Notes under the pieces: model-generated
The model's input: only the letters and a program-made list of their open reading frames with translations
What the model was told of the DNA's origin: nothing
Database searches by the model: none
Source: an uncultured Gammaproteobacteria bacterium
GTDB lineage: Bacteria > Patescibacteriota > Microgenomatia > CAZXEC01
DNA: 64,000 bases
NCBI GenBank assembly: GCA_964639595.1
Contig: CAZXEC010000001.1
Span: forward strand, 390,903-454,902
Reading direction: 5' to 3'
Part shown: one piece after another, positions 18,405 through 33,625 of the stretch
Position numbering within the stretch: the first letter of the stretch is position 1
How the letters are laid out: every line of letters starts with the position of its first letter
Position numbers and translations under genes: made by a program

Positions 18405-18420
18405 GTCTGCCCAAAAACTT

Positions 18421-18816
18421 ATGTTTCTTGGGCAGTATCAACCGAATTTAGACCAAAAAGCCAGAATTATCTTGCCAAAAAAGATCAGGAAGGCAATTGA
18501 CGGTCGGGAAATAATAGTAGCCAGAGGATTTGAGCAGTGTATTTTTGGATTTGAAAAAAAAGTTTGGCAGGATCGGACCGACAAAGAACTTTTACAACCA
18601 ATCACTGATGCAACATCCAGGAATAACAGGCGATATCTTTTTTCCGGGGCCTCACTGGTGGAATTAGATCAGCAAGGGAGGTTTGTGATCCCGCGCAATT
18701 TAATAACCTTTGCTCATATTACTAAAGATGTGATGGTCATTGGAGCCGGAGATCATTTTGAGATTTGGGATAGTAAAACCTGGGAGAACTATCAGACCAG
18801 ACTGGAGCAATTATGA
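18421..18816 (+). CDS. mraZ: Transcriptional regulator MraZ
   Basis: MFLGQYQPNLDQKARIILPKKIRKAI...; first gene of the dcw cluster. The GTG start at 18400 in the ORF track was rejected in favour of ATG at 18421. Confidence 0.8.
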   Translation: MFLGQYQPNLDQKARIILPKKIRKAIDGREIIVARGFEQCIFGFEKKVWQDRTDKELLQPITDATSRNNRRYLFSGASLVELDQQGRFVIPRNLITFAHITKDVMVIGAGDHFEIWDSKTWENYQTRLEQL

Positions 18817-19694
18817 ATACTATCTTTCACCAGCCGGTGCTTTTGGCCGAGTCCGTTGACTACTTGAATGTGACAAAAGGTAGGCGATATATTGATGCCA
18901 CTTTAGGTGGTGGTGGGCATACTTGGGAGATTTTAAAAAGAGGTGGTTTGGTTTTGGGGCTGGATGTTGATGAGGCGGCAATCACCTACTGCCAGGAGAG
19001 GTTTGGGCAGGAGGAAAATTTAGTTGTAAAGCAGGGTAATTTTGCCAAGATCGCCGATATTGCTGGCTCTGCCGGTTTTGATCAAGTTGAGGGGATACTG
19101 TTTGATCTGGGTTTATCGTCGCATCAGCTTGGTGCGGCAGAAAGAGGATTTTCGTTTGCCAAAGACGGGCCTTTGGATATGCGGGCGGATTTGTCACTGG
19201 GAGTCAAAGCAGCTGATCTAGTGGGAGTGTTATCAAAAAAGGAGCTCTATGAACTTTTTCAAAATTATGGTCAAGATCCCAATTCTTGGAGAGTGGCTAA
19301 CTATATTGTTAGCCAGCGTCGAATAGAACAGATTATCTCAACCAGGCAACTGGCAGGGATAATTGAGACGGCAACTGGCAAGACCAGACGTAAAATTCAT
19401 CCGGCAACCAGAATTTTTCAAGCGCTCAGAATTGCTGTCAATGATGAGATTGGGAATCTGAAGTTAGGGCTAAGTGGCGCCATGGCAGTTTTAAAGAAAG
19501 ACGGCAAACTGGTGGTTGTTAGTTATCATTCGCTGGAAGATCGGGTGGTTAAGGATTTTTTCAAGAGTCAGAAAAATTTACGCATCGTCAATGAAAAACC
19601 AATTTTACCAACCCGTGAAGAAATTGAAATTAACCCCAGGTCAAGAAGCGCCAAGATGAGAGTAGCAGAGAAAATAATGATGAATGATGAATGA
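18813..19694 (+). CDS. rsmH: 16S rRNA (cytosine1402-N4)-methyltransferase RsmH (MraW)
   Basis: HQPVLLAESVDYL...IDATLGGGGHT...GILFDLGLSSHQL. The C-terminal MMNDE is contributed by a repeat element. Confidence 0.85.
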   Translation: MNTIFHQPVLLAESVDYLNVTKGRRYIDATLGGGGHTWEILKRGGLVLGLDVDEAAITYCQERFGQEENLVVKQGNFAKIADIAGSAGFDQVEGILFDLGLSSHQLGAAERGFSFAKDGPLDMRADLSLGVKAADLVGVLSKKELYELFQNYGQDPNSWRVANYIVSQRRIEQIISTRQLAGIIETATGKTRRKIHPATRIFQALRIAVNDEIGNLKLGLSGAMAVLKKDGKLVVVSYHSLEDRVVKDFFKSQKNLRIVNEKPILPTREEIEINPRSRSAKMRVAEKIMMNDE

Positions 19695-19735
19695 TGAATG
19701 ATGAAGGATAAAAGATAAAAAATAAAGGTTTACTG
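19674..19735. repeat. AT-rich 'ATGAATGATGAAGGAT' dispersed repeat family, copy at the rsmH/ftsL junction
   Basis: ATAATGATGAATGATGAATGATGAATGATGAAGGATAAAAGATAAAAAATAAAGG. Confidence 0.5.
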
Positions 19736-19738
19736 CCC

Positions 19739-20050
19739 ATGTATTTTGCCAAAACAGAAACAACCAAATCCGCACAGCACTACCTATTCATTTTACTAAT
19801 AGTATTAATGCTGATATTGTCATTTTTACAGCTTGTTTTGGCTAACCACCTGGCGACGCAAGGCAGAACCATGGCCAAAATTGAAGAGCAGGTTGGCATT
19901 TTAGAAGAAGAGAATCAAGAACTGCAAAATCAGAAAGCTAAAATTACTTCGATAGGTCACATAGCCCAAGAGAGTCAAAGATTAGGCTTTTACAAGCCTG
20001 GCTCTTTCCTGTATATTTCTTCTCAGACGGTTGTGGCTTTGGCTAATTGA
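19739..20050 (+). CDS. ftsL: Cell division protein FtsL-like (single TM plus coiled coil)
   Basis: Position between rsmH and ftsI; one TM (HYLFILLIVLMLILSFLQLVLA) followed by a leucine-zipper-like segment. Confidence 0.5.
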   Translation: MYFAKTETTKSAQHYLFILLIVLMLILSFLQLVLANHLATQGRTMAKIEEQVGILEEENQELQNQKAKITSIGHIAQESQRLGFYKPGSFLYISSQTVVALAN

Positions 20051-20076
20051 AAATTCTCGTACATTTCTTGTAACTT

Positions 20077-21804
20077 ATGTGGAGAATCAAGTTCCTCTTT
20101 TTTGCTATTGTAGTGGTAGGATTTTTGATCATTGCCAGATTATTTTTTTGGCAAGTATTATCACAGGATAAACTTCAAGCTAGAGCAGAACAGCAGCACT
20201 GGTTTATAAGGGAAATCGGTGCCAGCAGGGGAGAAATATTTGATAGAAATGGTGCCAAACTAGTGGGGAATGATTTGGCCTTTTTGGTGTATGCCAACTT
20301 GCCGGCGCTTGTCGAATCGCAAAAAGCAGAAATTGCCAGAGTCCTGGCGCCGGTTGTCTATCAAGGTAATGAAGCCACGGCCTCGGCAGTTGATTTGCCT
20401 GCTAGCAAGAATTTCCAAGAGGAGATTTTAGCAAAATTAAATCAATCCAATTTAATTTGGGTGCCTCTGGCGCGCAAAATTAGCCAGCAATCCAAAAAAA
20501 CTATTGAATCTTATAATTTTGACGGCATAAACTTTGAGCAAGACAACCAAAGATTTTATCCGGAAGCATCCATGGCAGCCCAACTCTTAGGGTTTGTCGG
20601 CTCTGACCAGGACGGTCGCGATAGAGGTTATTTCGGGCTAGAAGGATTTTACCACCAGGATCTTAAGGGTAAGCCGGGGGAAGTTCAACAAGAACGTGAT
20701 GCCCGTGGTCGGCCCATCCTGATTGGCGGGTATAAAATTGGCCAAGCAGAAGATGGCAGGAATTTACAACTCTACCTGGATCGTACTATTCAATATTTTG
20801 CAGAAAAACATTTGGCAGCAGGTGTTTTGAGATATGGGGCCAAATCAGGCTCGGTGGTGGTAGTGGATCCTCAAACCGGTGGGATATTGGCGATGGCTTC
20901 TTATCCGGCATATGATCCATTAAACTTTACCAAGTATCCGGCTGTCCTCTATAAAAACCCGCTGGTGGCTGATACTTATGAGCCAGGATCAACTTTTAAA
21001 GTGTTTATTATGTCGGCGGCGCTCCAGGAAAGTTTAGTAAAGCCGGACACCATTTGTCCTATCTGCCATGGACCTAAGAAAATTGGTGAGTATGCTGTCA
21101 GAACTTGGGACAATAAGTACAGAGCCAACTCTACCATGGCTGATGTTATCATACACTCGGATAACGTTGGCATGACCCATGTGGCTGACTTGTTGGGACT
21201 AGATAGGCTATATAAATATATTGAAAATTTTGGTTTCGGCCAACTGACAGGAATTGACTTGCAGGATGAAGCGGCAGCCCAGTTGCGCCCCAAAAGTGAT
21301 TGGTATCCGATTGATGTGGCAACTGCCTCATTCGGTCAAGGAGTAGCAGTGACTGCTATCCAAATGGTTAGTGCTGTATCAACACTGGCTAACGGTGGGA
21401 AATTAATGGAACCGCATGTGGTTGAAAAAATTATTGGGAGAGATAAAACAATCGAAATAAAACCTAAAATTATCAGGCAGATTTTAAGACCGGAAACAAC
21501 CAAGCAGGTGACTGAAATAATGGTGCAGGCAGTAGAAAAAGGAGAAGCCAAATGGACCAGGCTTTCTGGCTTTAGAATTGCCGGTAAAACCGGGACGGCC
21601 CAGATTCCCATTGCCGGGCATTATGATCCCAAAAAGACCATTGCTTCTTTTGTGGGATTTGCGCCAGCTGATCAGGCCCGCTTTGTGATGTTGGTCAGGT
21701 ATGATGAGCCAACCAGTTCTCCTTATGGAGCAGAAACCGCCGCTCCCACTTTTTTTGCCATTGCCCGCGATATTTTAGGCTATCTAAATATTGCCCCGCA
21801 GTAG
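20077..21804 (+). CDS. ftsI: Peptidoglycan D,D-transpeptidase FtsI (class B PBP)
   Basis: STFK (EPGSTFKVF), SDN (HSDNVG) and KTGT (AGKTGTAQ) motifs. N-terminal TM plus dimerisation domain. Confidence 0.85.
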   Translation: MWRIKFLFFAIVVVGFLIIARLFFWQVLSQDKLQARAEQQHWFIREIGASRGEIFDRNGAKLVGNDLAFLVYANLPALVESQKAEIARVLAPVVYQGNEATASAVDLPASKNFQEEILAKLNQSNLIWVPLARKISQQSKKTIESYNFDGINFEQDNQRFYPEASMAAQLLGFVGSDQDGRDRGYFGLEGFYHQDLKGKPGEVQQERDARGRPILIGGYKIGQAEDGRNLQLYLDRTIQYFAEKHLAAGVLRYGAKSGSVVVVDPQTGGILAMASYPAYDPLNFTKYPAVLYKNPLVADTYEPGSTFKVFIMSAALQESLVKPDTICPICHGPKKIGEYAVRTWDNKYRANSTMADVIIHSDNVGMTHVADLLGLDRLYKYIENFGFGQLTGIDLQDEAAAQLRPKSDWYPIDVATASFGQGVAVTAIQMVSAVSTLANGGKLMEPHVVEKIIGRDKTIEIKPKIIRQILRPETTKQVTEIMVQAVEKGEAKWTRLSGFRIAGKTGTAQIPIAGHYDPKKTIASFVGFAPADQARFVMLVRYDEPTSSPYGAETAAPTFFAIARDILGYLNIAPQ

Positions 21805-21808
21805 CTTG

Positions 21809-22510
21809 CTACCAAGCAGCGCTGGGATGCTCACGATCAATAATGAATTTCTTAAAATTACCCTGGCAGTATTTTTGGGCCAGTAGTTCAAATTCTGCCA
21901 TAGCCAGATCTAAATTTTGCCTATTTTCATCAGGAGATTCAAAAACCAAGATGGCATTTTTGGTCTGTTCTGTTAGTTTGGTCCTGTCGCCTTCTCGCCA
22001 ATTCCATCTTCTACAAACTGCACCACTGTTATCTTTATAAATAACTTCACCCACCACAGGCGGATCGTTGGCTGTTTGCCCTAAAGGGATAAACTCTTCA
22101 CGGCCGCTGGCAAAATTAAAGATTAGATCGCCGTCTATTTTATCAAGATCTTCTCCGCCGACTGCCAGCAGATATTTTAAGGAAATATAATTGTATAAGT
22201 CGACTAATTTGTTAATATGAGGCAGGGGGTTTTCTCTTGCAGCTCTTCTTACCAGTGCCTCGATTGAGCTTCTATAGTCATGAGGATCGCAACCAAATTT
22301 TCTATATATATTTCTCCAGGCAAGAATTGTGGGGTGTTCTGCCACAGATGCAAACTGGGAAAATGCTTGTCTGACCTCTCTTTCGGCTTGTCTTTGCAGG
22401 TTGCCAATTGTTACCTCATCGCCATTATTATCCAAATTAAATCCAACTATGGCGCCGATAGTAATATTGGCAAATGACTCAAAAATAGCGTCTGACACTA
22501 CTAATTTCAT
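21809..22510 (-). CDS. Stand-alone B3/4 (PheT tRNA-binding-like) domain protein
   Basis: PHINKLVDLYNYISLKYLLAVGGEDLDKIDGDLIFNFASG closely resembles the PheT B3/4 domain core. It is one of the few minus-strand genes. Confidence 0.5.
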   Translation of the reverse strand: MKLVVSDAIFESFANITIGAIVGFNLDNNGDEVTIGNLQRQAEREVRQAFSQFASVAEHPTILAWRNIYRKFGCDPHDYRSSIEALVRRAARENPLPHINKLVDLYNYISLKYLLAVGGEDLDKIDGDLIFNFASGREEFIPLGQTANDPPVVGEVIYKDNSGAVCRRWNWREGDRTKLTEQTKNAILVFESPDENRQNLDLAMAEFELLAQKYCQGNFKKFIIDREHPSAAW

Positions 22511-22576
22511 GACAAGAGTATATACAAAAAAAGTAGCAAATTACAACTGATTAAGATATAATTAGCTTCCAGATCA

Positions 22577-23797
22577 ATGCTACAGACTCTCAAAAACTGG
22601 TACCACTTGCTGCAAGCCTTAACAGCCTGTTTCTGGTTTGGTTTTCCTTCCGCCAGACTTCAGGTAATTGGCGTCACTGGCACTGATGGTAAGACCACCA
22701 CAGTCAATCTGATTTACCACATCCTCAGGCAAGCTGGTAAAAAAGTATCAATGGTGTCCTCAATCAATGCCGTGTTGGGCAACGAGGATTATGATACCGG
22801 CTTTCATGTGACCACCCCTGACCCTTATTTTTTGCAAAAATATCTTAAAATGGCGGCGGATGACGGTGCGGAATATATGATAGTGGAAGCCACTTCCCAT
22901 GGTTTGGACCAAAACCGCCTCTGGGGAGTAAAATTTAAGGCCGCGGTTGTTACCAATATTACTCATGAACACCTGGATTATCACAAGACTTACCAGAATT
23001 ACTTAAAGTCCAAGGCCAAACTTTTTACCAATGTTGATTTGAGTATTCTTAACTTGGATGATCAGTCTTATTGGGTACTAGCTAAATTAGCTGCCGGTAA
23101 AAAAATAACCTATTCCCTAAAAAATAATACTGCCGACTATACAGTTGATAAATTTCCCTTCCAGACCAAGCTGACCGGAGAGTACAATAAATATAATATT
23201 TTGGCAGCACTGGCCTGTTGTCGGGAGTTGGGAATTGATAAGCAGGCCATACGAGATGCCATTGCCGGCTTTTCGTCGTTGGCAGGCAGGATGGAAAAAA
23301 TTGACTTGGGGCAGGATTTTTCTGTGGTGGTTGATTTTGCCCATACACCAAATGCCCTAGGCCAGGCCTTAGGCGCACTGCGTTCAACTACCAAAGGTAG
23401 ATTGATGGCTGTTTTTGGCTGTGCTGGCTTGCGGGACAGGCAAAAAAGGCCGCTGATGGGACAGGTAGCAGGAAAACTGGCAGATCTGGCAGTAATTACC
23501 GCTGAAGATCCCAGGACTGAAGATGTCGGGCAAATTATTGATCAGATTGCCCAGGGCATGCAACAATCAGGGATGGAGGAATCAATGATGAATGATAAAG
23601 GATTAAGGATGAAAGGTTTTTATAAAGTGCCTGATAGAAAAGAAGCAATAGAGTTTGCCATCAATCTGGCGCAAACCGGTGATACAATAGGGATTTTTGG
23701 TAAAGGACACGAAAAATCTATGTGCTATGGTACGAAAGAATATTCCTGGTCAGATCAGGAGGCTGCTTACGCCGCCATCAGGAAAAGGTTATCATGA
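22577..23797 (+). CDS. murE: UDP-MurNAc-L-Ala-D-Glu:diamino acid ligase MurE, short form lacking the N-terminal domain; contains an in-frame repeat-derived insertion
   Basis: P-loop VIGVTGTDGKTTT at about residue 30, and DFAHTPNAL (MurE domain 3). The segment SGMEESMMNDKGLRMKG (23571-23613) coincides with a dispersed repeat. Confidence 0.7.
   Translation: MLQTLKNWYHLLQALTACFWFGFPSARLQVIGVTGTDGKTTTVNLIYHILRQAGKKVSMVSSINAVLGNEDYDTGFHVTTPDPYFLQKYLKMAADDGAEYMIVEATSHGLDQNRLWGVKFKAAVVTNITHEHLDYHKTYQNYLKSKAKLFTNVDLSILNLDDQSYWVLAKLAAGKKITYSLKNNTADYTVDKFPFQTKLTGEYNKYNILAALACCRELGIDKQAIRDAIAGFSSLAGRMEKIDLGQDFSVVVDFAHTPNALGQALGALRSTTKGRLMAVFGCAGLRDRQKRPLMGQVAGKLADLAVITAEDPRTEDVGQIIDQIAQGMQQSGMEESMMNDKGLRMKGFYKVPDRKEAIEFAINLAQTGDTIGIFGKGHEKSMCYGTKEYSWSDQEAAYAAIRKRLS
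23571..23613. repeat. Same repeat family, copy in frame inside murE
   Basis: …ATCAATGATGAATGATAAAGGATTAAGGATGAAAGG shares a 17-mer (AATGATAAAGGATTAAG) with the reverse complement of 30446-30462. Confidence 0.5.
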
Positions 23798-24540
23798 AAA
23801 TAGCTGGTATAATTTTAGCAGCCGGTAAAGGCACCCGTTTTAATAAAGGCGCGCCATCACGCCTGCCCAAAGTGTTATACAAAATTGGTGGTCGACCAAT
23901 GCTTGGTTATACTTTGGATATCCTCAAGCATTTAGGGGTTGAACCCCTCAATACAGTGATTGTGATTGGACATCAAGGCCACCTGGTCAGGCAATTTGCC
24001 GGCAGCCAATATAAATATGCTATTCAAAATCCACCCCTGGGAACAGGTGATGCCTTAAAGTGTGGACTTGGCCAAGTTCCAGCGGACTTTAATACCGTCC
24101 TTTGCTTAAATGGTGATGATAGTGCTTTTTATAAACCACAGACTATCAATAAGATTATAAAAATCCATTTCCAAGAAAAATCAACTATCACCTTTGTCAC
24201 ATTACAAAAAGAAAATCCTGTTGGCTTGGGAAGAATCATCAGGGATCAAGCCGATCACCTGCAGGGTATTATTGAAGAAAAAGATGCCACTGACAGAGAG
24301 AGACAAATCAAAGAAGTAAATGATGGATTATATATATTTGAAAAAAACTGGCTAACCGACAATATTGTTGACCTTCCACGCGGTCCACAAGGAGAATATT
24401 ATTTGGTAGACTTAGTAAAGATGGCGCTGGGCCAAAACAAGAAAGTGATTGCCTATAAACTGACGGATGCCAGCCAATGGTGGGGTGTTAATACCCCGGA
24501 AGAATTGATCCAGGCCAATCAACTGATGTCAAAGGAATAA
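23794..24540 (+). CDS. glmU: GlmU N-terminal domain homologue (GlcNAc-1-P uridylyltransferase) as a separate ORF
   Basis: MKIAGIILAAGKGTRF...LPKVLYKIGGRPMLGYTLD. ATGA overlap with murE. It ends at the position of the GlmU interdomain linker. Confidence 0.6.
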   Translation: MKIAGIILAAGKGTRFNKGAPSRLPKVLYKIGGRPMLGYTLDILKHLGVEPLNTVIVIGHQGHLVRQFAGSQYKYAIQNPPLGTGDALKCGLGQVPADFNTVLCLNGDDSAFYKPQTINKIIKIHFQEKSTITFVTLQKENPVGLGRIIRDQADHLQGIIEEKDATDRERQIKEVNDGLYIFEKNWLTDNIVDLPRGPQGEYYLVDLVKMALGQNKKVIAYKLTDASQWWGVNTPEELIQANQLMSKE

Positions 24541-24543
24541 TCA

Positions 24544-25215
24544 ATGAATTTAAAATTTCCGGACTGGGAGAGATCACAGAAGAAAATTGACCAACTTCAG
24601 TCTGCCGGGGTGCGCTTTTATCAACCTGGTAGTTGTGTGGTGGCAGAGAAGGTACAAATCAAATCAGGTACAGCAATTTTACCCAACTGCCGCATTTTAG
24701 GGAAAACCACGATTGGTAAAAATTGCCAGATAGGACCGGATTGCTTAATAGATAATTGCCAAATTGGTGATGATTGCCAGATTGTCGCGTCTTGCTTGGA
24801 AGAGGCGGTCATTGAAAGTAGTGTTGATATTGGCCCGTATTCTCATATTAGAGAGGGCACGGTTATTAAAAAAAGCGCTCATATTGGAAATTTTGTAGAA
24901 ACAAAAAATACCGAAATTGGCCAAAGTACCAGAGTTGGACATATGTCATATCTTGGTGATGCGACAGTTGGCCAAGATGTCAATGTGGGAGCAGGGGCTG
25001 TTGTTGCTAATTTTGACGGACAAAAAAAATATCAAACTAAAATTGGATCAGGAACTCAAGTTGGGTCAGATACCATCCTTGTTGCTCCTGTTTCTGTGGG
25101 ACGGAATGCCAAAACTGGTGCCGGAGCAGTGGTGATTGAAGATATTCCCGATGATGCCTTGGCAGTCGGAGTGCCGGCCAAAGTTATCAAAGTGAGAGGG
25201 GTAAGAATTAAATGA
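24544..25215 (+). CDS. glmU: GlmU C-terminal domain homologue (GlcN-1-P N-acetyltransferase, LbH) as a separate ORF
   Basis: HMSYLGDATVGQDVNVGAGAVVANFDGQKKYQTKIGSGTQVGSDTILVAPVSVG matches the GlmU acetyltransferase core. Confidence 0.6.
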   Translation: MNLKFPDWERSQKKIDQLQSAGVRFYQPGSCVVAEKVQIKSGTAILPNCRILGKTTIGKNCQIGPDCLIDNCQIGDDCQIVASCLEEAVIESSVDIGPYSHIREGTVIKKSAHIGNFVETKNTEIGQSTRVGHMSYLGDATVGQDVNVGAGAVVANFDGQKKYQTKIGSGTQVGSDTILVAPVSVGRNAKTGAGAVVIEDIPDDALAVGVPAKVIKVRGVRIK

Positions 25216-26393
25216 GATTGTATGAATTTGAAGCCCGCCAACTCTTAAAAGATCAAGGAGTGAACGTCCCTGATGGGAAACTTATCACCAGTGTCGAAGA
25301 CCTTAAAAAATTACCCGCAGATTATTTGGTTGTCAAAGCGCAAGTATTGACAGGCGGCAGGCAAAAAGGCAATCTGGTGAGAATCAGAGATAATGCCGGT
25401 CAAGTAGCTGCCGACGTTAAAGAATTATTATCTGAAAAAGATGATTATGTTTCCTCTATATTGGTTTGTCAAAAAATTACTTCACAAAAAGAATATTATG
25501 TTAGTTTTTCTTATGATACTTCCAGCCGAACTCCGGTGTTAGCTTTTTCTGATCAGGGAGGCGTTGATATTGAAGATGCCAAAAAGGTGAAAATTTATCC
25601 GATTGATCCATTGACTGATTTTGATCCGTCAGCTTTACCGATTCCGAAGGATTTAGTTGACACAGTGGCCAAACTATATCAGGTTTTTGTCAAATATGAT
25701 TGCGAGCTGGTGGAAGTAAATCCCCTGGTGGTTGATACTGCAGGACAAATTCTGGCGCTTGATGCCAAGATTATTTTGGATGATGATGCGGACTTTCGCA
25801 GAGAAGCAAACCCCGATTTAATCGGGGTAAAATTCCCGGAAAGAAATTTATTTGGCAGAGCTTCAACAGAAGCAGAAATTGAGGCCAGAACTATTGATGA
25901 GGGAGATCATCGAGGCACAGCCGGTTCTGTTTATTGGGATCTACCAGGTGACATTGCAGTGCTGGCTGCCGGCGGCGGCGGTTCTATTGTCTGCATGGAT
26001 GCTTTAATCGCCTTGGGAGGCAAACCTGCCAATTATACCGAGCATTCCGGCAATCCGCCTCGAGAAAAAATTAAACAGCTGACTAAAATAATTCTTGCCA
26101 AAAGTGGTTTGAAAGGTTGTTGGGTGGTAGGCGGCACCGCTAATTTTACAGATATTTATGAAACCTTGATGGGTTTTGTGGAAGGTTTAAGAGAAACCAG
26201 CCCCAAGCCTGGTTATCCGATTGTGATCCGTCGCGGCGGCCCCAGGGATCGTGAAGCTTTTGAGGCGCTAAAAGAAATTGGTAAAAAAGAAGGCTATGAT
26301 TTTCATATATATGGTCGGGAAACACCCATGACAGCGACAGCCAAAACAATAGTGGAACTGGCTTATGGCAAAGGGGAAAGGGGTAAAGGGTGA
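25212..26393 (+). CDS. SucC-like ATP-grasp subunit (succinyl-CoA synthetase beta, citryl-CoA synthetase large subunit, or ACL beta-like)
   Basis: MRLYEFEARQLLKDQGVNVPDGK... aligns with SucC throughout (…GGKPANYTEHSGNPP…). The C-terminal GKGERGKG tail is contributed by a GC-rich repeat element. Confidence 0.7.
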   Translation: MRLYEFEARQLLKDQGVNVPDGKLITSVEDLKKLPADYLVVKAQVLTGGRQKGNLVRIRDNAGQVAADVKELLSEKDDYVSSILVCQKITSQKEYYVSFSYDTSSRTPVLAFSDQGGVDIEDAKKVKIYPIDPLTDFDPSALPIPKDLVDTVAKLYQVFVKYDCELVEVNPLVVDTAGQILALDAKIILDDDADFRREANPDLIGVKFPERNLFGRASTEAEIEARTIDEGDHRGTAGSVYWDLPGDIAVLAAGGGGSIVCMDALIALGGKPANYTEHSGNPPREKIKQLTKIILAKSGLKGCWVVGGTANFTDIYETLMGFVEGLRETSPKPGYPIVIRRGGPRDREAFEALKEIGKKEGYDFHIYGRETPMTATAKTIVELAYGKGERGKG

Positions 26394-26430
26394 AGAAAAT
26401 CTTTCCCCTAAACGCTTGACGCTTTACCCT
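26371..26430. repeat. GC-rich palindromic element copy 2 at the sucC-like/sucD-like junction
   Basis: AAGGGGAAAGGGGTAAAGGGTGAAG...CTTTCCCC...CTTGACGCTTTACCC. The stems GGGGAAAG/CTTTCCCC and GGGTAAAG/CTTTACCC pair. Confidence 0.45.
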
Positions 26431-26435
26431 AACTA

Positions 26436-27347
26436 ATGATTTTAATAAACGAAAAAACTAAAGTTTTGGTACAGGGGATCACTGGTAAAGAAGGTTCCAA
26501 AGTGGCTTTGCAGATGCAAAACTATGGCACTAAAGTCTTGGCCGGAGTCACTCCGGGAAAAGGCGGAGAAGAAGTACATGGAGTACCAGTATATGACACA
26601 GTCGCCCAAGCTCTAAAAAACCACCCAGGTATTAATGCTTCGTTTGTGGCAGTACCTAATTTTGCCGCCTTATCAGCAGTTAAAGAAGCAGCAGTAGCCA
26701 AAATTGGGCTGATTAATGTTTTAACTGAACATGTACCGGTTCATGATACGGCTGTGATGATTGCCTTGGCCAAACAAAATAACGTCTGTTTGGTTGGCCC
26801 CAGTTCAATCGGGATTATCGCACCCGGAACTGGTAAAATTGGTTCAATCGGCGGAGATGACCCGCGGGGGGTATTTAGTCCAGGGGTGGTAGGTGTAATT
26901 TCCAAAAGCGGCGGCATGGCCTCGGAGATTTCCTGGATTTTAACAACAGCCGGTCTGGGGCAGTCAACAGTAGTGGGAATTGGCGGCGATATTTTAATAG
27001 GTAGCAATTTTGCCGATCTTTTATTACAATTCGATGGAGATGATCAAACCCGGGTGGTGGTGTTGTTTGGAGAAATTGGCGGTACTTACGAAGAGGAAGC
27101 AGCAGAATATATAAGTGGTAAGGGGAAAGCGGGAAGGGGAAAGTTTAGTAAACCAGTGGTGGCTTTTGTGTCCGGTTTATTTGCAGAAACCTTGCCTTCT
27201 GGTACCAAACTGGGGCATGCCGGAGCGATAGTTTACGGTAATAAAGGAAGTTATCCATCTAAGGTAGAGGCGCTCAAGAGAGCTGGAGTAGTGATGGCCA
27301 AGACCCTGGATGAAATCCCGACTTTGGTAAAAAAGGAGCTAAAATAA
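26436..27347 (+). CDS. SucD-like CoA-binding subunit with phospho-His loop
   Basis: KVLVQGITGKEGS (CoA-binding Rossmann) and TKLGHAGAIV (SucD catalytic His loop). Confidence 0.75.
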   Translation: MILINEKTKVLVQGITGKEGSKVALQMQNYGTKVLAGVTPGKGGEEVHGVPVYDTVAQALKNHPGINASFVAVPNFAALSAVKEAAVAKIGLINVLTEHVPVHDTAVMIALAKQNNVCLVGPSSIGIIAPGTGKIGSIGGDDPRGVFSPGVVGVISKSGGMASEISWILTTAGLGQSTVVGIGGDILIGSNFADLLLQFDGDDQTRVVVLFGEIGGTYEEEAAEYISGKGKAGRGKFSKPVVAFVSGLFAETLPSGTKLGHAGAIVYGNKGSYPSKVEALKRAGVVMAKTLDEIPTLVKKELK

Positions 27348-27352
27348 CAATT

Positions 27353-28117
27353 ATGGATAAGCAAAGCTTTTCTTCGAATAAAAGGTGGAAGACAGCCATT
27401 TCCGCAATAATTGACGGCCAACCTCACATTAGGGGCTATAAACTGGCAGATCTGGTGGATAAACTTACCCTTACCGAGGTGATCTTTTTGGAACTTAAAG
27501 GAGAATTACCGACAGGTAGCCAGCGCCAGATGATGGATGCTATTTTAATCTCCACTGTTGATAATGGTTTGGGCCCGCCGTCTGTTACTAACGCCCGAAA
27601 CTCGGCATCAAGTGTCAATCCGATGCAAGCATCAGTGGCTGCCGGAATTTTAGGTATCGGGGAGGCACATGGCGGGGCTATTGAGGAAGCAGCCCACCTA
27701 TTGCAGATGGGATACGCGGCTCCAGTTCTGGTAGAAAAAATTTTAGGCAAAGGCGATAGGATTCCCGGCTATGGCCACAAAGTCTATGATATTGACCCCA
27801 GAGCAACCCAGCTTTTGGACAAAGCCCAACAACTGGGATTTTATGGCGAGTACTGCACTTTGGCCAAAGAGGTAGGCAACGAACTGGAAAAGCAAAAAGG
27901 CAAGAAAATTCCCCTCAACGTTGATGGGGCTATTGCCGCCATTGTGTCTGATATGGGTTTTGACTGGCGTCTGGGCAAGGGCTTTTTCATAATCGGCAGA
28001 ACAGTCGCTTTGGTGGCTCACAGTTTTGAGGAGACAACCAGAGAAAAACCTTTCCGAAGAATTAGCGATGAAGATATTGAATACGACGGTCCTAACCCAA
28101 GAAAACTACCGCGTTAA
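27353..28117 (+). CDS. Citrate-synthase C-terminal-domain-like protein (citryl-CoA lyase-like, ~254 aa)
   Basis: All three citrate-synthase catalytic positions are conserved: HGGAIEE, GYGHKVYDIDPRA and NVDGA, plus GRTVALVAHSFEE. The size matches stand-alone Ccl. Confidence 0.55.
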   Translation: MDKQSFSSNKRWKTAISAIIDGQPHIRGYKLADLVDKLTLTEVIFLELKGELPTGSQRQMMDAILISTVDNGLGPPSVTNARNSASSVNPMQASVAAGILGIGEAHGGAIEEAAHLLQMGYAAPVLVEKILGKGDRIPGYGHKVYDIDPRATQLLDKAQQLGFYGEYCTLAKEVGNELEKQKGKKIPLNVDGAIAAIVSDMGFDWRLGKGFFIIGRTVALVAHSFEETTREKPFRRISDEDIEYDGPNPRKLPR

Positions 28118-28119
28118 TA

Positions 28120-29367
28120 TTGAAATTTAATATGTCTAATTCCCCAGAAGTTTTACATTTTATTGGTATTGGTGGTAGTGGTGCCTCGGCAGTGGCTGCT
28201 CTTGCTCAAGCCGCTGGATATCAAGTTACCGGATGCGATTTGGATACCAGCTCCAACTACTTAAAAGATTTGTCAACCATAGCAATCAGCCAAGGACATG
28301 CTCCCGCGCATATAAATAAGGTAGATCTGGTGGTAGTTTCGCCGGCGATTTTAAGCCTTGATGCTGATAACGAGGAACTCAAAGCAGCACACAATAAAAA
28401 AATTCCGCTGATGACCTGGCAGGAATTTATGGGTAAATTTTTGCAAAAAGACAAATTTGTGATTGCTGTTGCCGGCACTCACGGCAAATCAACCACTTGC
28501 GCCATGATCGGAATGATTTTGGAAGCGGCCGGCCTTGACCCAACAGTGGAAGTTGGAGCAATTGTCAGACAGTGGGGTAAAAATTATCGTCTTGGCCAGG
28601 GCAAATATTTTGTCTGTGAGGCCGATGAGTTTAATGATAATTTCTTAAACTACTATCCTGACCTGGCTGTTATTACCAACATTGAGTTTGACCATCCGGA
28701 ATATTTTCAAAATGAGCAGCAACTCCAGACTAGTTTTGCCAAGTTTATCAGCCAAGTCAAGTCTGGCGGTAGAGTGCTTCGTACCAGTGAAGTTGCTAAA
28801 GTTAAATATAATTTATCTATACCGGGTGAGTTTAATCAGGATAATGCCAGCCTGGCTGCAGCTTGCGCTCAACAACTTGGCATTGATGAGCTAGTTATAA
28901 AGAGCGCTTTGGAAAATTTTTCCGGAGTTGGCAGGAGATTTGAACAGGTGGGAGAAGTTGACGGTGTCAAAGTTTTTGACGATTATGCCCACCATCCCAC
29001 CGCCATTGTCAAAACACTGCAGGCTTTCAGGCAAAAATTCTCTAATGAGAAAATCTTTTGTGTTTTTCAGCCGCATATGTTTTCCCGCACCCGAGCTTTA
29101 TTTGATGATTTTGTTAAGGCTTTCCAAAATGCGCCGGTGGATGAAGTGATAGTTGTTGATATTTTTGCATCCCGCGAAAAAGCTACCGGCAGGGTGACCA
29201 GCCGTCAATTAGTCGAGGCTATAGGCAAAGATCATGTCAAATACTTATCCAGCTTAGAGGCTGCCTATAATTGGCTAAAAAGCCGGCTAGTTCCTGGTAG
29301 TATTGTGGTATGCATGGGCGCGGGTGATATTAATAAATTATCAAGAAAACTAGTTAATAATGAGTGA
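28120..29367 (+). CDS. murC: UDP-N-acetylmuramate--L-alanine ligase MurC
   Basis: HFIGIGGSGASAVA (domain 1) and VIAVAGTHGKSTT (P-loop). Confidence 0.85.
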   Translation: MKFNMSNSPEVLHFIGIGGSGASAVAALAQAAGYQVTGCDLDTSSNYLKDLSTIAISQGHAPAHINKVDLVVVSPAILSLDADNEELKAAHNKKIPLMTWQEFMGKFLQKDKFVIAVAGTHGKSTTCAMIGMILEAAGLDPTVEVGAIVRQWGKNYRLGQGKYFVCEADEFNDNFLNYYPDLAVITNIEFDHPEYFQNEQQLQTSFAKFISQVKSGGRVLRTSEVAKVKYNLSIPGEFNQDNASLAAACAQQLGIDELVIKSALENFSGVGRRFEQVGEVDGVKVFDDYAHHPTAIVKTLQAFRQKFSNEKIFCVFQPHMFSRTRALFDDFVKAFQNAPVDEVIVVDIFASREKATGRVTSRQLVEAIGKDHVKYLSSLEAAYNWLKSRLVPGSIVVCMGAGDINKLSRKLVNNE

Positions 29368-30436
29368 TCAATACAAAATAATTATAGACGAGTTGGGCAA
29401 AGATCACCTTTTGCAAGATGAGCCAATGGCCAGGCATACCACCTTTGCCATTGGCGGGCCGGCGGATTTGTTTTATGTAGCGCAAACCGCAGATGAGCTT
29501 ATTGGCGCTGTCAATTTAGCCAAAGCACGAAAAATTCCTTATTTTATTTTAGGTGGCGGATCAAAGATTTTGGTGGGGGATAAAGGTATCAGAGGACTGG
29601 TAATTCATAATAAAACTGTTGTAGTGGAAGTCATTAATTCATCCTTCATCATTCATCCCTCATCATTAACTAAGACGCAGCCGCGTTTTGGTCAGGCCGA
29701 TGAGGATCAGTTCATCAAATTTAATGATCTGGACTATGATGAATCAAAATATGACCGGGTGTTGGTCAAAGTTGATTCCGGAGTTATGGTGCCGGTGCTG
29801 ATTACTAATTTAATTAGCCAGGATATAACTGGCTTGGAGTGGTTTGCCAGAATCCCGGCATCAGTTGGTGGTGCAATCTATATGAATATGCATGGTGCTA
29901 ATCGTTTTTTGGGAAACTTAGTGGTGTCTGCCAGAATTCTTGATGCAGCCGGTAATATCAAAACTGTTGACCAATCTTATTTTCAATTTGATTATGATTA
30001 TAGTATTTTGCACAAGACCCTTGAGGTAGTACTTGATGTGACCCTAGCCTTGTATAAAGGAGACAGGCAGAAAGCATTAACTATTGCCACTGAGTGGGCC
30101 AAGAGAAAAAGTAAGGTTCAAACACCAACTTCTGCCGGTAGTATTTTCCGCAATCTTTCTGTGGTTGATATGACGAGACTTAAACTGCCCACTCCTGCTG
30201 CTGGCTATGTGATTGATCACCTGCTTGGTCTGGCAGGCACCAAAATCGGACAAGCCCAAATTTCTACTAAACATGCCAACTTTATAGTTAATTTAGGTGG
30301 AGCAAAAGCTACCGATGTGCTAGAATTGGTGAAGCTTTGCCAAGAGCAAGCCCAGCAAAAATTGGGTTTGGAACTGGCAGAAGAACTGCTCTACGTAGGG
30401 GAGTTTGGTAAGCAGATGGATGGTGAGATGAATTAA
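29360..30436 (+). CDS. murB: UDP-N-acetylenolpyruvoylglucosamine reductase MurB with an in-frame repeat-derived insertion
   Basis: An FAD-binding N-terminus (TTFAIGGPADLFY) and GSIFRN. The segment INSSFIIHPSSLTKTQ (29631-29675) coincides with the dispersed repeat in reverse orientation. Confidence 0.8.
   Translation: MSDQYKIIIDELGKDHLLQDEPMARHTTFAIGGPADLFYVAQTADELIGAVNLAKARKIPYFILGGGSKILVGDKGIRGLVIHNKTVVVEVINSSFIIHPSSLTKTQPRFGQADEDQFIKFNDLDYDESKYDRVLVKVDSGVMVPVLITNLISQDITGLEWFARIPASVGGAIYMNMHGANRFLGNLVVSARILDAAGNIKTVDQSYFQFDYDYSILHKTLEVVLDVTLALYKGDRQKALTIATEWAKRKSKVQTPTSAGSIFRNLSVVDMTRLKLPTPAAGYVIDHLLGLAGTKIGQAQISTKHANFIVNLGGAKATDVLELVKLCQEQAQQKLGLELAEELLYVGEFGKQMDGEMN
29631..29675. repeat. 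Same repeat family, reverse orientation, in frame inside murB
   Basis: Reverse complement = CTTAGTTAATGATGAGGGATGAATGATGAAGGATGAATTAATGAC. Confidence 0.5.
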
Positions 30437-30482
30437 CAAGATTCATTAATCTTTAATACTTAATCCTTTATCATTAACTAAT
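30416..30482. repeat. Same repeat family at the murB/murA junction, ending at the murA ATG
   Basis: Reverse complement contains ATTAGTTAATGATAAAGGATTAAG. Forward sequence reads …CCTTTATCATTAACTAAT-ATG. Confidence 0.5.
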
Positions 30483-31769
30483 ATGGCTAAATTTGAAATC
30501 ACTGGCGGCAGGCCCTTAATCGGACAGATTAATGCTGGAGCCAACAAGAATGGAATCTTACCGGTAATGGCTGCCAGCTTGTTAACGGATGAGGATTGTA
30601 TTTTAGAAAATGTACCTGATATAGGCGATGTTAAAGTATTGGGCCAAATCCTGCGGGAATTAGGTGCGGTAGTGGAAAAGCAGGGCGAGGATACACTCAA
30701 AATCAATACTTCAAAAGTTACTAAACATCAATTATCATCAGAACTGGTAGCTCAATTGAGAGGTTCTGTTTTACTTTTGGGGCCACTGGTCAAAAGACTG
30801 GGTAAGGTAAAAATGCGCCACCCCGGTGGAGACATTATCGGACGCAGGTCGATTGATGTCCATTTAGATGCTCTGTCTCAACTAGGAGTCAGCGTTAAGG
30901 TTGATGATAATAGTTACGAATTATCTGCTGGCAAATTAACCGGAGTTCCGGTGTTTTTAGTTGAGTCATCGGTCACAGCTACAGAAAATGTTATCATGGC
31001 AGCAGTTCTGGCAGAAGGAACTACGGTTATCAAACATGCTGCTTCCGAGCCGCATGTGGCTGATTTGTGTAAATTCTTAAATAAAATGGGTGCCAAAATA
31101 TCAGGAGTTGGTTCAAACCTGCTGATGGTGGAAGGCGTCTCAAGATTAAGAGGAATAACACACAGAATTCCCTCTGATCATATTGAAGTAGGCACTTTTG
31201 CCGTGGCTGCTGCTGTTACCCAGGGAGATATTACCATCAATGATGTGCAACCGGAAGATATGGACATGATTGTGACTTATCTGAAAAAAATGGGAGTTGA
31301 TATCAAGTTGGTTGCCAATAATTCGTCAGAACATAACCAGTCTCCATGGAGTCTGCAGGTGAAATCATCAAAACTGACGGCAATTCGTAAAATCGATACT
31401 GACCCATGGCCAGGATTCCCGACTGATTTGACGTCTGTATTTACTGTTTTGGCAACCCAAGCTGCAGGAACTACGTTGGTTCATGACTGGATGTACGAAG
31501 GCAGAATGTTTTTTGTGGATAAACTGATTAACATGGGCGCCAACATCATCTTATGTGATCCCCATCGGGCAGTGGTGGCTGGGCCGACTAAGCTGGTCGG
31601 CAGAGAACTGGATAGTCCGGATTTGAGAGCCGGTATGGCCCTGGTTTTGGCAGCCTTGGCAGCTGATGGTAGAAGCACCATAGATCGGATAGAACAGGTG
31701 GAAAGAGGTTACGGGGATGTGGAAAAAAGATTCAAAAGCCTGGGCGCGGCTATTAAGAGGGTAGACTGA
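30483..31769 (+). CDS. murA: UDP-N-acetylglucosamine 1-carboxyvinyltransferase MurA
   Basis: MAKFEITGGRPLIGQINAGANKNGILPVMAA... with typical MurA N-terminus and length. Confidence 0.85.
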   Translation: MAKFEITGGRPLIGQINAGANKNGILPVMAASLLTDEDCILENVPDIGDVKVLGQILRELGAVVEKQGEDTLKINTSKVTKHQLSSELVAQLRGSVLLLGPLVKRLGKVKMRHPGGDIIGRRSIDVHLDALSQLGVSVKVDDNSYELSAGKLTGVPVFLVESSVTATENVIMAAVLAEGTTVIKHAASEPHVADLCKFLNKMGAKISGVGSNLLMVEGVSRLRGITHRIPSDHIEVGTFAVAAAVTQGDITINDVQPEDMDMIVTYLKKMGVDIKLVANNSSEHNQSPWSLQVKSSKLTAIRKIDTDPWPGFPTDLTSVFTVLATQAAGTTLVHDWMYEGRMFFVDKLINMGANIILCDPHRAVVAGPTKLVGRELDSPDLRAGMALVLAALAADGRSTIDRIEQVERGYGDVEKRFKSLGAAIKRVD

Positions 31770-31845
31770 TAATGATTAAGGATGAATGATGAATTACAAA
31801 ATAAATTTAATCATTAATAGTTGATCTTTTATCATTAACTAATGT
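31770..31845. repeat. Same repeat family at the murA/glmS junction (forward and reverse half-copies forming a hairpin)
   Basis: TAATGATTAAGGATGAATGATGAAT…TTAATCATTAATAG…CTTTTATCATTAACTAATG. TAATGATTAA (31770-79) pairs with TTAATCATTA (31808-17). Confidence 0.5.
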
Positions 31846-33621
31846 ATGTGTGGGATTTTTGGCTATGTCGGAACCAACGATGATGCTGCTGAAAAAGTCT
31901 TACAAGGACTGAAAAGATTAGAATATCGCGGTTATGATTCTTGGGGAATCGCTGTTTTAAATGGTAAAATAAAGTTGAGCAAAAAAGTTGGGGCAATAGG
32001 AGATATTAATGGCCAAACAAGCCTGCCTCGATCCTCAATCGGTATTGGACATACTCGTTGGGCTACACATGGAGGAATAAATGAAATTAATGCTCACCCA
32101 CACCTCTCTTCTGATAGGAGCTTTGCCCTTGCTCAAAATGGTATTGTAGAAAACTATCTGGAGCTCAAAAAAGAACTATTAAAGAAAAACTTCAAATTTA
32201 ACTCCGAAACAGACACCGAAGTAATTGTTAGGTTAGTTGAGCAGGAACTAAAGCATAGCAAAAACCTGATTGATGCGATACGTTTGGCGTTTTTGAAATT
32301 AAAAGGAAGAAATACGGTAATTATTTTAACACAAGATGGCCGGATGATTGCCGCTCGTAATGGCTCACCTTTGGTTGTTGGTCTAAATAAGAAAGATCGT
32401 GAAATATATTTGTCTTCCGATACTTTATCTTTTGCTCCATTTGTTCAGAAGATGATAGTTGTAGAAAATAGTCAGCTGGTTTACTGCCAAGACGGGAATA
32501 TAAAATTAATGGATATTAAATCAGGCAGGAATCGATCATATATACAAGAAAATGTTGATCTTGACAATAATACTATCGATAAAGAAGGGTATCCCCACTT
32601 CATGGTTAAGGAGATACACGAAGGCCCATATGTCATAAGACAATTGCTGAATCAAGATATAAAAATTTATCAACAACTGGTAAATGCCATCAAGAAAGCC
32701 AAAAATGTCTATACTATCGCATCTGGGACAACCGGTATAGCAGCCTCTCAGATAGCATTTTATTTGAGAATTTATACTAAAATTAAAGTAACCAGCTTAA
32801 TAGGTGCCGAAGCTCTGGATTATTATGATCTGTTCTCTAAAGGAGATTTGATTATTGCCCCATCCCAAAGCGGTGAAACAGCAGATGTGTTGGAGGTTCT
32901 GGAAGTTGCCAAAAAGAAAGGGGTTAAAATTGCCTCTTTTGTTAATATGTCAGGATCCACCATGACCAGAATGTCAGATATTAAATTTATGACCCAATCC
33001 GGTCCGGAGGTTTGTGTGATGTCTACTAAGGTGTTCGTTTCACAAATTGCCTGGGGTTATCTGATTGCCAAAATTGCTCAAGGTAAACTCAAAGAAGGGG
33101 TTAGAAATTTGAATGATCTAGCTTATCAAATGGATAAGTACTTAAAAGATAGAAAAAATCATAAGGCTATAAAATTGATAGGGAAAAAGTTGATCAAAGC
33201 AAAAAATATTTTCCTTTTAGGAAAATATCAAAATCTAAATATTATCAAGGAAGGTATGGTTAAAATTATTGAAGGCACGTATAAACATGCTCATGCTATC
33301 CCTGCTGGGGACTTAAAACACTACGCCATAACTCTAATAGAAAAAGGCGTTCCGGTTATTTCAGCTGTTTCTTGTGATGTGGCAGAGAGAGATATTCTCA
33401 ACGCTGTCAATGAGGTAAAAGCCAGAGGTGCTACAATTATAGGGATATCACCAAAACCTCATCAAAGCTTTGATTTTCACCTCCAAGTTCCTGACACGAA
33501 AGAAACCTCGGCTATTATGAATATTATTCCACTGCAGTTGCTATCTTATTATATGACTGTTGAACTTGGTCATAATGTAGATAAACCTAGAAATATTGCC
33601 AAAAGCGTGACAGTTAAATAA
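31846..33621 (+). CDS. glmS: Glutamine--fructose-6-phosphate aminotransferase GlmS
   Basis: MCGIFGYVG (Ntn Cys) plus two SIS domains. Confidence 0.9.
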   Translation: MCGIFGYVGTNDDAAEKVLQGLKRLEYRGYDSWGIAVLNGKIKLSKKVGAIGDINGQTSLPRSSIGIGHTRWATHGGINEINAHPHLSSDRSFALAQNGIVENYLELKKELLKKNFKFNSETDTEVIVRLVEQELKHSKNLIDAIRLAFLKLKGRNTVIILTQDGRMIAARNGSPLVVGLNKKDREIYLSSDTLSFAPFVQKMIVVENSQLVYCQDGNIKLMDIKSGRNRSYIQENVDLDNNTIDKEGYPHFMVKEIHEGPYVIRQLLNQDIKIYQQLVNAIKKAKNVYTIASGTTGIAASQIAFYLRIYTKIKVTSLIGAEALDYYDLFSKGDLIIAPSQSGETADVLEVLEVAKKKGVKIASFVNMSGSTMTRMSDIKFMTQSGPEVCVMSTKVFVSQIAWGYLIAKIAQGKLKEGVRNLNDLAYQMDKYLKDRKNHKAIKLIGKKLIKAKNIFLLGKYQNLNIIKEGMVKIIEGTYKHAHAIPAGDLKHYAITLIEKGVPVISAVSCDVAERDILNAVNEVKARGATIIGISPKPHQSFDFHLQVPDTKETSAIMNIIPLQLLSYYMTVELGHNVDKPRNIAKSVTVK

Positions 33622-33625
33622 TAAT

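Follow-up and report, generated by a model that had tools for sequence, protein, structure and literature searches.

A citryl-CoA synthetase/citryl-CoA lyase gene module linked to acetyltransferase genes in Candidatus Daviesbacteria, with a possible role in acetyl-CoA supply

Background

Cleavage of citrate to acetyl-CoA and oxaloacetate, either by citryl-CoA synthetase (CCS, subunits CcsA and CcsB) together with citryl-CoA lyase (CCL, Ccl) or by ATP-citrate lyase (ACL), is known from autotrophs, in the reductive tricarboxylic acid (TCA) cycle, and from eukaryotes, as the source of cytosolic acetyl-CoA. ACL is a fused derivative of CCS and CCL, and the reaction, in which free energy changes little, can be reversed in vitro. 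Here we analyze a ccsA-ccsB-ccl gene module in a 64,000-nucleotide (nt) stretch of DNA from a groundwater bacterium of Candidatus Daviesbacteria, a reduced, ultra-small organism belonging to the candidate phyla radiation (CPR) (contig CAZXEC010000001.1, positions 390,903 to 454,902; this entire stretch is hereafter called the window, and positions are counted from its first nucleotide). The module is located directly downstream of an acetyltransferase gene, and comparison of sequences and gene neighborhoods leads us to consider it likely, although by no means certain, that the three genes encode a working citrate-cleavage system that supplies acetyl-CoA to this acetyltransferase.

No TCA cycle or carbon fixation pathway has been reported in the CPR (PMC7143001), and CPR and DPANN sequences annotated as succinyl-CoA synthetase (SCS) or citrate synthase have been found to fall within the CCS and CCL clades (preprint 10.1101/2022.10.25.513756). 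The initial annotation of the window described a coupling of citrate cleavage to cell wall synthesis as novel. This claim does not extend to the enzymes, which are known both from the preprint and from the NCBI record of the exact Ccl protein, already named citryl-CoA lyase [Candidatus Daviesbacteria bacterium]. The genetic coupling to acetyltransferases, in contrast, appears to be undescribed, as no literature was found that relates citryl-CoA enzymes to GlmU or to the provision of acetyl groups in CPR, and the physiological role of the CPR module is probably new.

Results and discussion

The three proteins and their described relatives

The closest described system is that of Hydrogenobacter thermophilus (Aquificae; structures 6hxq and 6hxp), in which CcsA, CcsB and Ccl are, as in the window, three separate polypeptides with the same domain make-up. 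In the window, ccsA (25212..26393) encodes a 393-amino acid (aa) large, beta-type CCS subunit with ATP-grasp and citrate-binding domains, ccsB (26436..27347) a 303-aa small, alpha-type subunit with CoA_binding and Ligase_CoA domains, and ccl (27353..28117) the 254-aa lyase. All three genes are on the plus strand; the gap is 42 nt between ccsA and ccsB and 5 nt between ccsB and ccl, and the start of ccsA overlaps by 4 nt the stop of the upstream gene for the C-terminal half of GlmU. The positions, lengths and tight spacing of these open reading frames (ORFs) agree with the initial annotation, and Pfam matches confirm its description of the products as a SucC-like ATP-grasp protein, a SucD-like protein and a citrate synthase C-terminal domain. 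Its further proposal, that these are CcsA, CcsB and Ccl in the unfused architecture that preceded ACL, holds in the profile, PDB, pocket, indel and neighbor-joining tree comparisons detailed below, and very probably, as judged from these sequence comparisons, the three genes are true homologues of CcsA, CcsB and Ccl. Unlike H. thermophilus, the bacterium that carries the module here belongs to the CPR and is mesophilic, ultra-small and non-autotrophic. No TCA cycle gene other than the module was detected in the 64-kb window, as also noted initially, and neither was any enzyme of the reductive cycle (2-oxoglutarate:ferredoxin oxidoreductase, fumarate reductase and others).

CcsA matches the Pfam families ATP-grasp_2 (PF08442; 114 bits) and, following it, Citrate_bind (PF16114; 89 bits, with a cut-off of 26.8). 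Among PDB sequences, it ranks the CCS large subunit 6hxq_B (195 bits) above the beta subunit of Chlorobium ACL (155 bits) and SCS-beta (121 bits); the C-terminal domain alone scores 102 bits against ACL, 101 against CCS and only 32 against SCS. The full-length protein is below the SucC cut-offs (172 bits vs 370/375) and below that for malate-CoA ligase. The citrate pocket signature (26139..26243) consists of ANFT (aa 310-313, nt 26139-26150) and RRGGP (aa 340-344, nt 26229-26243), and is preceded by AGGG within aa 253-256 (motif AAGGGGS, aa 252-258) and HSGN (aa 278-281), both encoded upstream of it. These segments align to positions 280-283, 307-310, 343-348 and 378-382 of human ACLY, in which residues 280-281, 307-310, 343-348 and 379 contact citrate (PMC11365397). 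The aligned pocket reads AGGG/HSGN/GTANFT/RRGGP in CcsA and AGGG/YSGA/SIANFT/RRGGP in ACLY, whereas the same positions of Thermus SCS-beta read NGAG/IGGG/IFGGIT/RVAGT; the equivalents of the ACLY side chains S308, N346, F347, T348 and R379 are identical in CcsA. The Hydrogenobacter CcsA, although the best PDB match overall, has ANNT and RRNGP, so that the ANFT and RRGGP of the window are nearer to ACL, and the AGGG/ANFT/RRGGP pocket is identical to that of prokaryotic ACL.

The pocket signature is retained in all 30 complete CcsA sequences of Daviesbacteria and Curtissbacteria that we examined, apart from three single-residue variants; the variants seen are Tyr for His at the ACLY-307 equivalent (L015, L091; labels of this form denote the loci compared), RRSGP (L008), and SGGG together with AVANFT (L091). 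The ACLY-307 position is His in Daviesbacteria and Tyr in ACL. This difference, along with the membership of methylcitrate synthases in the citrate synthase superfamily, could be taken to indicate that the actual substrate is a citrate analogue, such as 2-methylcitrate or another hydroxy-polycarboxylate, in which case a different acyl-CoA or keto acid would be delivered to the neighboring acyltransferase. We consider this quite improbable given the five identical side chains, the much higher scores of Ccl against the citryl-CoA lyase model and structure (297 and 269 bits) than against 2-methylcitrate synthases (70 bits or less), and the nature of the neighboring left-handed beta-helix (LbH) domains, which, with 236-246 bits on TIGR01173, are of the typical GlmU acetyltransferase kind. 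The initial annotation had also allowed for another CoA-thioester chemistry, a suggestion that is disfavored by the fully conserved citrate pocket.

The assignment of CcsB is less straightforward. The protein matches CoA_binding (PF02629; 77 bits) and Ligase_CoA (PF00549; 60 bits), carries the phospho-histidine loop GHAGA (aa 260-264; 27213..27227), which was read directly and aligned to SCS-alpha and CcsB structures, and stays below both SucD cut-offs (286-288 bits vs 336/353). What counts against a CcsB identity is that it scores 278 bits against the archaeal SCS-alpha 2yv2 and 217 bits against the Hydrogenobacter CcsB 6hxq_A; given the high conservation of alpha subunits, this best match weakens the assignment without overturning it. 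Two insertions of the window protein are also present in 6hxq_A and in every ccs-linked alpha subunit, one of four residues (IGSIGGDDPR in the window; consensus IGxIGGxD/N) and one of three (GLFAETL; GxFxE) immediately before the GHAGA loop, and both are missing from three SCS-alpha structures, although we defined these signatures ourselves from a small number of reference sequences rather than taking them from a published definition. In a neighbor-joining distance tree, CcsB groups with the ccs-linked alpha subunits. The Hydrogenobacter chain is 353 aa long, and the 303-aa window protein lacks its C-terminal tail of about 60 residues. A variable, low-complexity loop rich in Gly, Lys, Ser and Pro (GKGKAGRG in the window) was noted at about aa 219-230 (27090-27125); it recurs at the same spot in L012, L016, L020, L023, L028 and L031, and reaches up to about 25 residues.

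The match of Ccl to Pfam Citrate_synt covers only the C-terminal part (profile positions 167-355 of 357), whereas the NCBIfam citryl-CoA lyase model NF004869 is matched with 297.4 bits (cut-off 212) and the solved H. thermophilus CCL (6hxp_A) over the full length with 269 bits and 53.5% identity; the next PDB match is a citrate synthase, with 61 bits and 31% identity, and the lyase domain of ACL reaches only about 60 bits. The catalytic positions (27668..27931) were read directly and by alignment in the motifs HGGAIEE (aa 106-112, nt 27668-27688), GYGHKVY (aa 139-145, 27767-27787) and NVDGA (aa 189-193, 27917-27931). The residues in question, H106, H142 and D191, are invariant in an alignment of 14 homologues and correspond to the same residues of 6hxp and of the citrate synthase 6abx. 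The motif readings of the initial annotation, GHAGA included, all stand. The protein falls inside the CCL clade of a neighbor-joining tree.

ACL proper, represented by AclA/AclB of Chlorobium limicola (6hxj) and Methanothrix/Methanosaeta (6hxi), shares the chemistry and the homologous modules, but its CcsB-like and Ccl-like parts are fused into a chain of about 600 aa. In the window these are separate genes (the ccsB stop codon is at 27345-27347 and is followed by the 5-nt gap), as they are in all related loci, and ACL proper is therefore excluded.

The refuting outcome considered in the initial annotation was an ordinary SucCD pair next to a truncated or pseudogenized citrate synthase. Such a pair would share with CcsA/CcsB the fold family and the mechanism, namely, an ATP-grasp beta subunit and a CoA-binding alpha subunit with a phospho-histidine, and the alpha subunits are up to about 55% similar. 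The best-named NCBIfam matches of the first two proteins are indeed SucC and SucD models, the best PDB matches of the alpha subunit are SCS-alpha, and CPR genes of this kind are often annotated accordingly (preprint 10.1101/2022.10.25.513756). However, both proteins are below the curated cut-offs (172 vs 370 bits for SucC, 287 vs 336-353 for SucD), the substrate pocket and domain are of the ACL/CCS type, the alpha subunit has CCS-type indels, and the lyase partner matches a solved CCL over its full length, exceeds the cut-off of the CCL model and shows about 70% identity across more than 100 clusters; moreover, there are no other TCA cycle genes in the window. As far as sequence goes, this explanation is refuted, and we leave it only the slightest probability.

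Conservation of the module and of its acetyltransferase neighbors

A scan of one genome per species identified Ccl relatives in 309 genomes. In about 26 species of Daviesbacteria/Microgenomates, Ccl is 65-71% identical to the window protein, and beyond a gap in identity, relatives at about 45-53% were found in Zixibacteria, Ignavibacteria, Chloroflexi and one archaeon. The three genes ccsA, ccsB and ccl occur together in all 26 Daviesbacteria species. At the protein level, Ccl is retained at about 70% identity in more than 100 clusters in each of two CPR classes, which indicates purifying selection; the Curtissbacteria-type Ccl family is likewise large. Overall, the three proteins retain intact ATP-grasp, phospho-histidine, citrate pocket and lyase catalytic residues and are under strong purifying selection.

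We clustered the ORFs that flank the Daviesbacteria loci and obtained the conserved order Nramp - fam3 - ccsA - ccsB - ccl - ... - trpS - ftsH. Of the 25 informative loci, 22 have a gene of the family denoted fam3 upstream of ccsA, at a distance of 1 nt to 2.2 kb. This family comprises proteins of about 430 aa, archaeal-type bifunctional sugar-1-phosphate nucleotidylyltransferases/acetyltransferases (NTP_transferase plus hexapeptide), which score 247 bits on TIGR03992 (cut-off 292) and are only 25-28% identical to the bacterial-type GlmU halves encoded at this place in the window. The archaeal-type GlmU arrangement is also found in L088 and L089, with a gap of 3 nt to ccsA. In three Curtissbacteria loci (L090, L091, L095), a stand-alone GlmU C-domain immediately precedes ccsA-ccsB-ccl, and its reading frame overlaps with ccsA in L091 and L095. 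Two further Curtissbacteria loci, L093 (3384-3809, minus strand) and L094 (3328-3756, minus strand), carry instead a divergently transcribed gene for a 141-aa GNAT acetyltransferase, 73 nt from ccsA, which has no specific family match and could be an enzyme similar to GlcN-6-P acetyltransferase.

Thus, four non-orthologous acetyl-CoA-dependent acetyltransferases are found beside ccsA, in two deeply diverged versions of the module, and among the loci compared, this is the case only in these CPR lineages. No LbH, NTP-transferase or GNAT ORFs of these types were detected within 8 kb of ccl in any of the 54 non-CPR loci, by BLAST probes and iterated profile searches. In this respect, too, the window differs from the H. 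thermophilus system, as its genes are contiguous and follow an acetyltransferase gene. Identity between the two CPR module types is only 43-50% (Curtissbacteria against the window), so that the linkage has been kept or re-created across deep divergence and partner replacement.

A less specific role deserves consideration at this point. The module could be a genuine CCS/CCL that serves general central metabolism, through citrate scavenging, provision of oxaloacetate for aspartate or phosphoenolpyruvate, or as a remnant of a partial reductive TCA branch, the adjacency to acetyltransferases being a historical accident. The solid enzyme identity is compatible with such a role, as are the loci in which the acetyltransferase is not adjacent, the inserted cassettes that often part the module genes (both discussed below), and the gene of the Asp/Glu racemase family that four loci carry downstream of ccl; furthermore, a single ancestral arrangement could underlie most of the 22 Daviesbacteria cases. 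Nevertheless, four non-orthologous acetyltransferases at the same position in two module lineages of 43-50% identity are hard to derive from one inherited arrangement, the non-CPR loci have no such neighbors (0 of 54), and the murE-murC junction, empty in relatives, harbors both the glmU halves and the ccs genes in the window clade. A general metabolic role is, in our estimate, unlikely.

Other features of these neighborhoods were recorded. The Asp/Glu-racemase-family gene (TIGR00035, 146 bits), found a few genes downstream of ccl in L009 (11710-12450), L023, L024 (11691-12401) and L028, may be a weak hint of the use of oxaloacetate-derived aspartate, perhaps as D-Asp for peptidoglycan. A conserved ORF of about 432-441 aa, with no Pfam or NCBIfam match, directly follows ccl in L009 (8866-10164), L006 (9054-10424), L013, L019 and L088 (6699-8024). 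Between ccsB and ccl of the Curtissbacteria-type loci L091 (10731-11216) and L090 (11076-11582), there are ORFs of 161-168 aa that are 32% identical to each other and have no family match. Among the 54 non-CPR loci (L032-L085; Zixibacteria, Ignavibacteria and others), 47 encode a Ccl homologue without ccsA or ccsB within 8 kb; the contiguous trio is found in Chloroflexi and on one archaeal contig (L047), and L071 carries a second SucCD-like pair in which the alpha subunit reads GHRGV for GHAGA.

The GlmU halves and the five-gene block of the window

The acetyltransferase gene that precedes ccsA in the window is one half of a split glmU. The N-half, a sugar-1-phosphate uridylyl/nucleotidyltransferase of 248 aa (23794..24540, plus strand; Pfam NTP_transferase, 67 bits), is the first gene of a five-gene block specific to the window clade; its ORF opens at GTG 23722 and has an ATG at 23794 that overlaps the murE stop by 4 nt. 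The C-half, an LbH GlcN-1-P (glucosamine-1-phosphate) N-acetyltransferase domain of 223 aa (24544..25215, plus strand), follows after TAA and 3 nt. Each half fits only its own part of TIGR01173, with 183 and 246 bits, respectively, against a cut-off of 367: the C-half matches profile positions 238-441, and the NCBIfam GlmU models cover the N-half at positions 2-238 only. The same split and the same call of the N-half gene are seen in the independent assembly L001. The C-half shares 52% identity with the stand-alone acetyltransferase encoded before ccsA in the Curtissbacteria locus L091, and a database of 5.8 billion proteins yielded, itself apart, no homologue above 51% identity. Among named proteins, the closest relatives are stand-alone acetyltransferases, about 200 aa in length, from Curtissbacteria and other Patescibacteria; stand-alone GlmU C-domains of about this size are common among the best Microgenomates database matches.

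The five genes are bordered on the left by a murE-type Mur ligase gene (22577..23797, plus strand; Mur_ligase_M and Mur_ligase_C) and on the right by murC (28120..29367, plus strand; Mur_ligase, Mur_ligase_M and Mur_ligase_C). The distance from ccl to murC is 2 nt to a TTG start and 14 nt to the probable start, ATG 28132, which the gene callers use in L001 (411 aa). The block is embedded in an extended cell envelope and division (dcw) cluster that runs from glycosyltransferase genes through mraZ, rsmH, ftsI, murE, glmU-N, glmU-C, ccsA, ccsB, ccl and murC to murB, murA, glmS, a murF-like gene, femAB, mraY, murD, ftsW, murG, ftsQ, ftsA and ftsZ, and the same arrangement is present in five independent assemblies from SRA. 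These flanks are as described in the initial annotation, which further suggested that the module supplies acetyl-CoA to GlmU for cell wall synthesis. The conserved upstream acetyltransferase speaks for this idea; the dcw setting does not, as it is not conserved. When the 26 Daviesbacteria loci were probed with the 62 ORFs of the window, none of the 59 ORFs other than the module genes was found within 8 kb of the module, which rules out linkage to the mur/peptidoglycan cluster as conserved evidence. The embedding was found only in the window and in L086, a 90%-identical relative; in the trees of Ccl and of CcsB, this pair branches as sister to all the remaining Daviesbacteria.

Among MurC relatives from metagenomes, the typical gene order is mraZ-(rsmH)-ftsI-murE-murC(-murB-murA). 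In L103, L109, L137 and L139, murE is followed by murC either directly or past a single 248-aa ORF, and glmU and the ccs genes are absent there. Because these relatives have the murE-murC adjacency without the block, the arrangement suggests that glmU and ccs travel together, and in the window clade, glmU-N, glmU-C, ccsA, ccsB and ccl seem to have been placed at the murE-murC junction as a single block; the MurC relatives are taxonomically unlabeled and only 40-57% identical in MurC, so that the comparison is suggestive only. The position between murE and murC is probably clade-specific and secondary. The 248-aa ORF of L109 and L139 was considered as a resident GlmU N-half, which would have made the mobile unit one of four genes, and was ruled out for lack of NTP-transferase similarity; by eye only, this ORF has a PgeF/YfiH-type likeness. 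Gene-level GC content and GC content at third codon positions of the block deviate by no more than 1.7 standard deviations from the window mean, that is, there is no sign of recent transfer in the composition.

Several additional features of the window lie outside the block. An exact 15-mer, TTATCATTAACTAAT, occurs at 30468-30482 and 31829-31843, ending 0-2 nt before the ATG codons of murA and glmS, and a related sequence, TTTACCCTAACTA, precedes ccsB near 26420-26435. In a search with mismatches, the 15-mer was not above chance, yet its position relative to start codons is odd, and it may be a leader or translation-initiation element. The only minus-strand gene in the otherwise co-directional mraZ-to-ftsZ block encodes a B3_4-domain protein (21809-22510), and an IS200-like (Y1) transposase gene (50712-51386, minus strand) is located just after ftsZ. 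A second hexapeptide acetyltransferase, by family a consumer of acetyl-CoA type substrates, is encoded at 1750-2352 in a glycosyltransferase-rich polysaccharide cluster, and the FemAB-family gene (37470-38495) has a weak GNAT-fold match (Acetyltransf_6).

Proposed mechanism and direction of flux

In the mechanism that we propose, CcsA/CcsB would convert citrate, ATP and CoA to citryl-CoA, with citrate as the presumptive physiological substrate, and Ccl would split citryl-CoA into acetyl-CoA and oxaloacetate. The acetyl-CoA would feed the acetyltransferase encoded directly upstream, which in the window is the acetyltransferase half of GlmU; this enzyme would acetylate GlcN-1-P to N-acetylglucosamine-1-phosphate (GlcNAc-1-P), for UDP-GlcNAc and peptidoglycan, and the CoA that it frees would be taken up again by CcsA/CcsB. 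Overall, the scheme would amount to citrate + ATP + GlcN-1-P -> oxaloacetate + ADP + Pi + GlcNAc-1-P. The module would thus be a dedicated acetyl-CoA generator in Daviesbacteria, with a divergent version in Curtissbacteria, presumably co-transcribed with its acetyltransferase partner, and would have no role in a reductive TCA cycle. Its logic would resemble that of eukaryotic ACLY, with which it has the citrate-contact residues in common, in that citrate obtained elsewhere is cleaved for biosynthetic acetylation; ACLY, however, is a single fused chain of 1,100 aa, whereas the window encodes three small proteins with a genetic tie to one specific acetyltransferase.

Several observations weigh against this proposal. 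Since the ACL/CCS reaction is nearly reversible, we infer the direction of flux from context only. There is no recognizable citrate transporter and no oxaloacetate-using enzyme in the 64-kb window, and a promoter and terminator scan of positions 18000-34500 yielded about as many sites as expected from shuffled sequence and no intergenic terminator that was convincing. Four loci (L007, L016, L027, L087) have no adjacent acetyltransferase. Small cassettes, of the toxin-antitoxin and other types, part the module genes by up to 2.5 kb in many Daviesbacteria, so that co-transcription is not assured and the genes need not form an obligatory operon. The trees, both for clade membership and for the sister position of the window clade, are quick neighbor-joining trees without support values. 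Finally, the typical routes to acetyl-CoA in CPR, including other Microgenomates, are pyruvate:ferredoxin oxidoreductase (PFOR) and the acetyl-CoA synthetases ACS/ACD (or Pta-Ack) (PMC7143001, PMC9698310).

The cassettes themselves (in L006-L031 and L087) include BrnT/BrnA-like and MazEF-like pairs, Phd/ParE, four-helix proteins of the 23S rRNA intervening sequence type and GIY-YIG nucleases. Interruptions of the module, which place ccsB and ccl as much as 2.5 kb apart, are seen, for example, in L024 (5531-7998), L029 (6137-7998) and L087 (8446-9964).

The direction of flux also bears on whether the module could run as an ATP-conserving citrate synthase, condensing acetyl-CoA with oxaloacetate to citryl-CoA, which would then yield citrate and CoA with phosphorylation of ADP, a substrate-level phosphorylation suited to a fermentative cell. 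The small free-energy change of the ACL/CCS-CCL reaction and its reversibility in vitro are general knowledge and would permit this. CPR bacteria are fermenters that usually make acetyl-CoA by PFOR and gain ATP from it (PMC7143001, PMC9698310). Nevertheless, the synthetic direction would demand oxaloacetate in stoichiometric amounts, for which the 64-kb window offers no source, and would bring no more ATP than the ADP-forming acetyl-CoA synthetase does without a co-substrate; it also leaves unexplained why the conserved neighbors are consumers rather than producers of acetyl-CoA. We rate its chances as low, and return to citrate cleavage as the preferred direction.

Conclusions

The acetyltransferase together with CcsA, CcsB and Ccl may even represent a self-contained, transferable cassette for citrate-driven acetylation with closed CoA recycling, which would use citrate from the host or the environment to N-acetylate the amino sugars of the cell wall in certain CPR bacteria that have no other source of acetyl-CoA. 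Under this extended and decidedly tentative scenario, at least three exchanges of the acetyltransferase partner would have taken place, involving archaeal-type GlmU, the bacterial GlmU C-domain and GNAT, the block would have moved into the dcw cluster in one clade, and these symbionts would rely on external citrate to build their peptidoglycan.

If acetyl-CoA supply is indeed the function of the module, this would be a third physiological use of an ancient enzyme pair, and would explain the source of the acetyl groups for UDP-GlcNAc and peptidoglycan in highly reduced bacteria. Citrate would then be a probable host- or community-derived nutrient, which could guide the choice of media for cultivation of Daviesbacteria and Curtissbacteria. 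The presence of unfused CCS/CCL with an ACL-like pocket in a deep bacterial radiation also has a bearing on the evolution of ACL.

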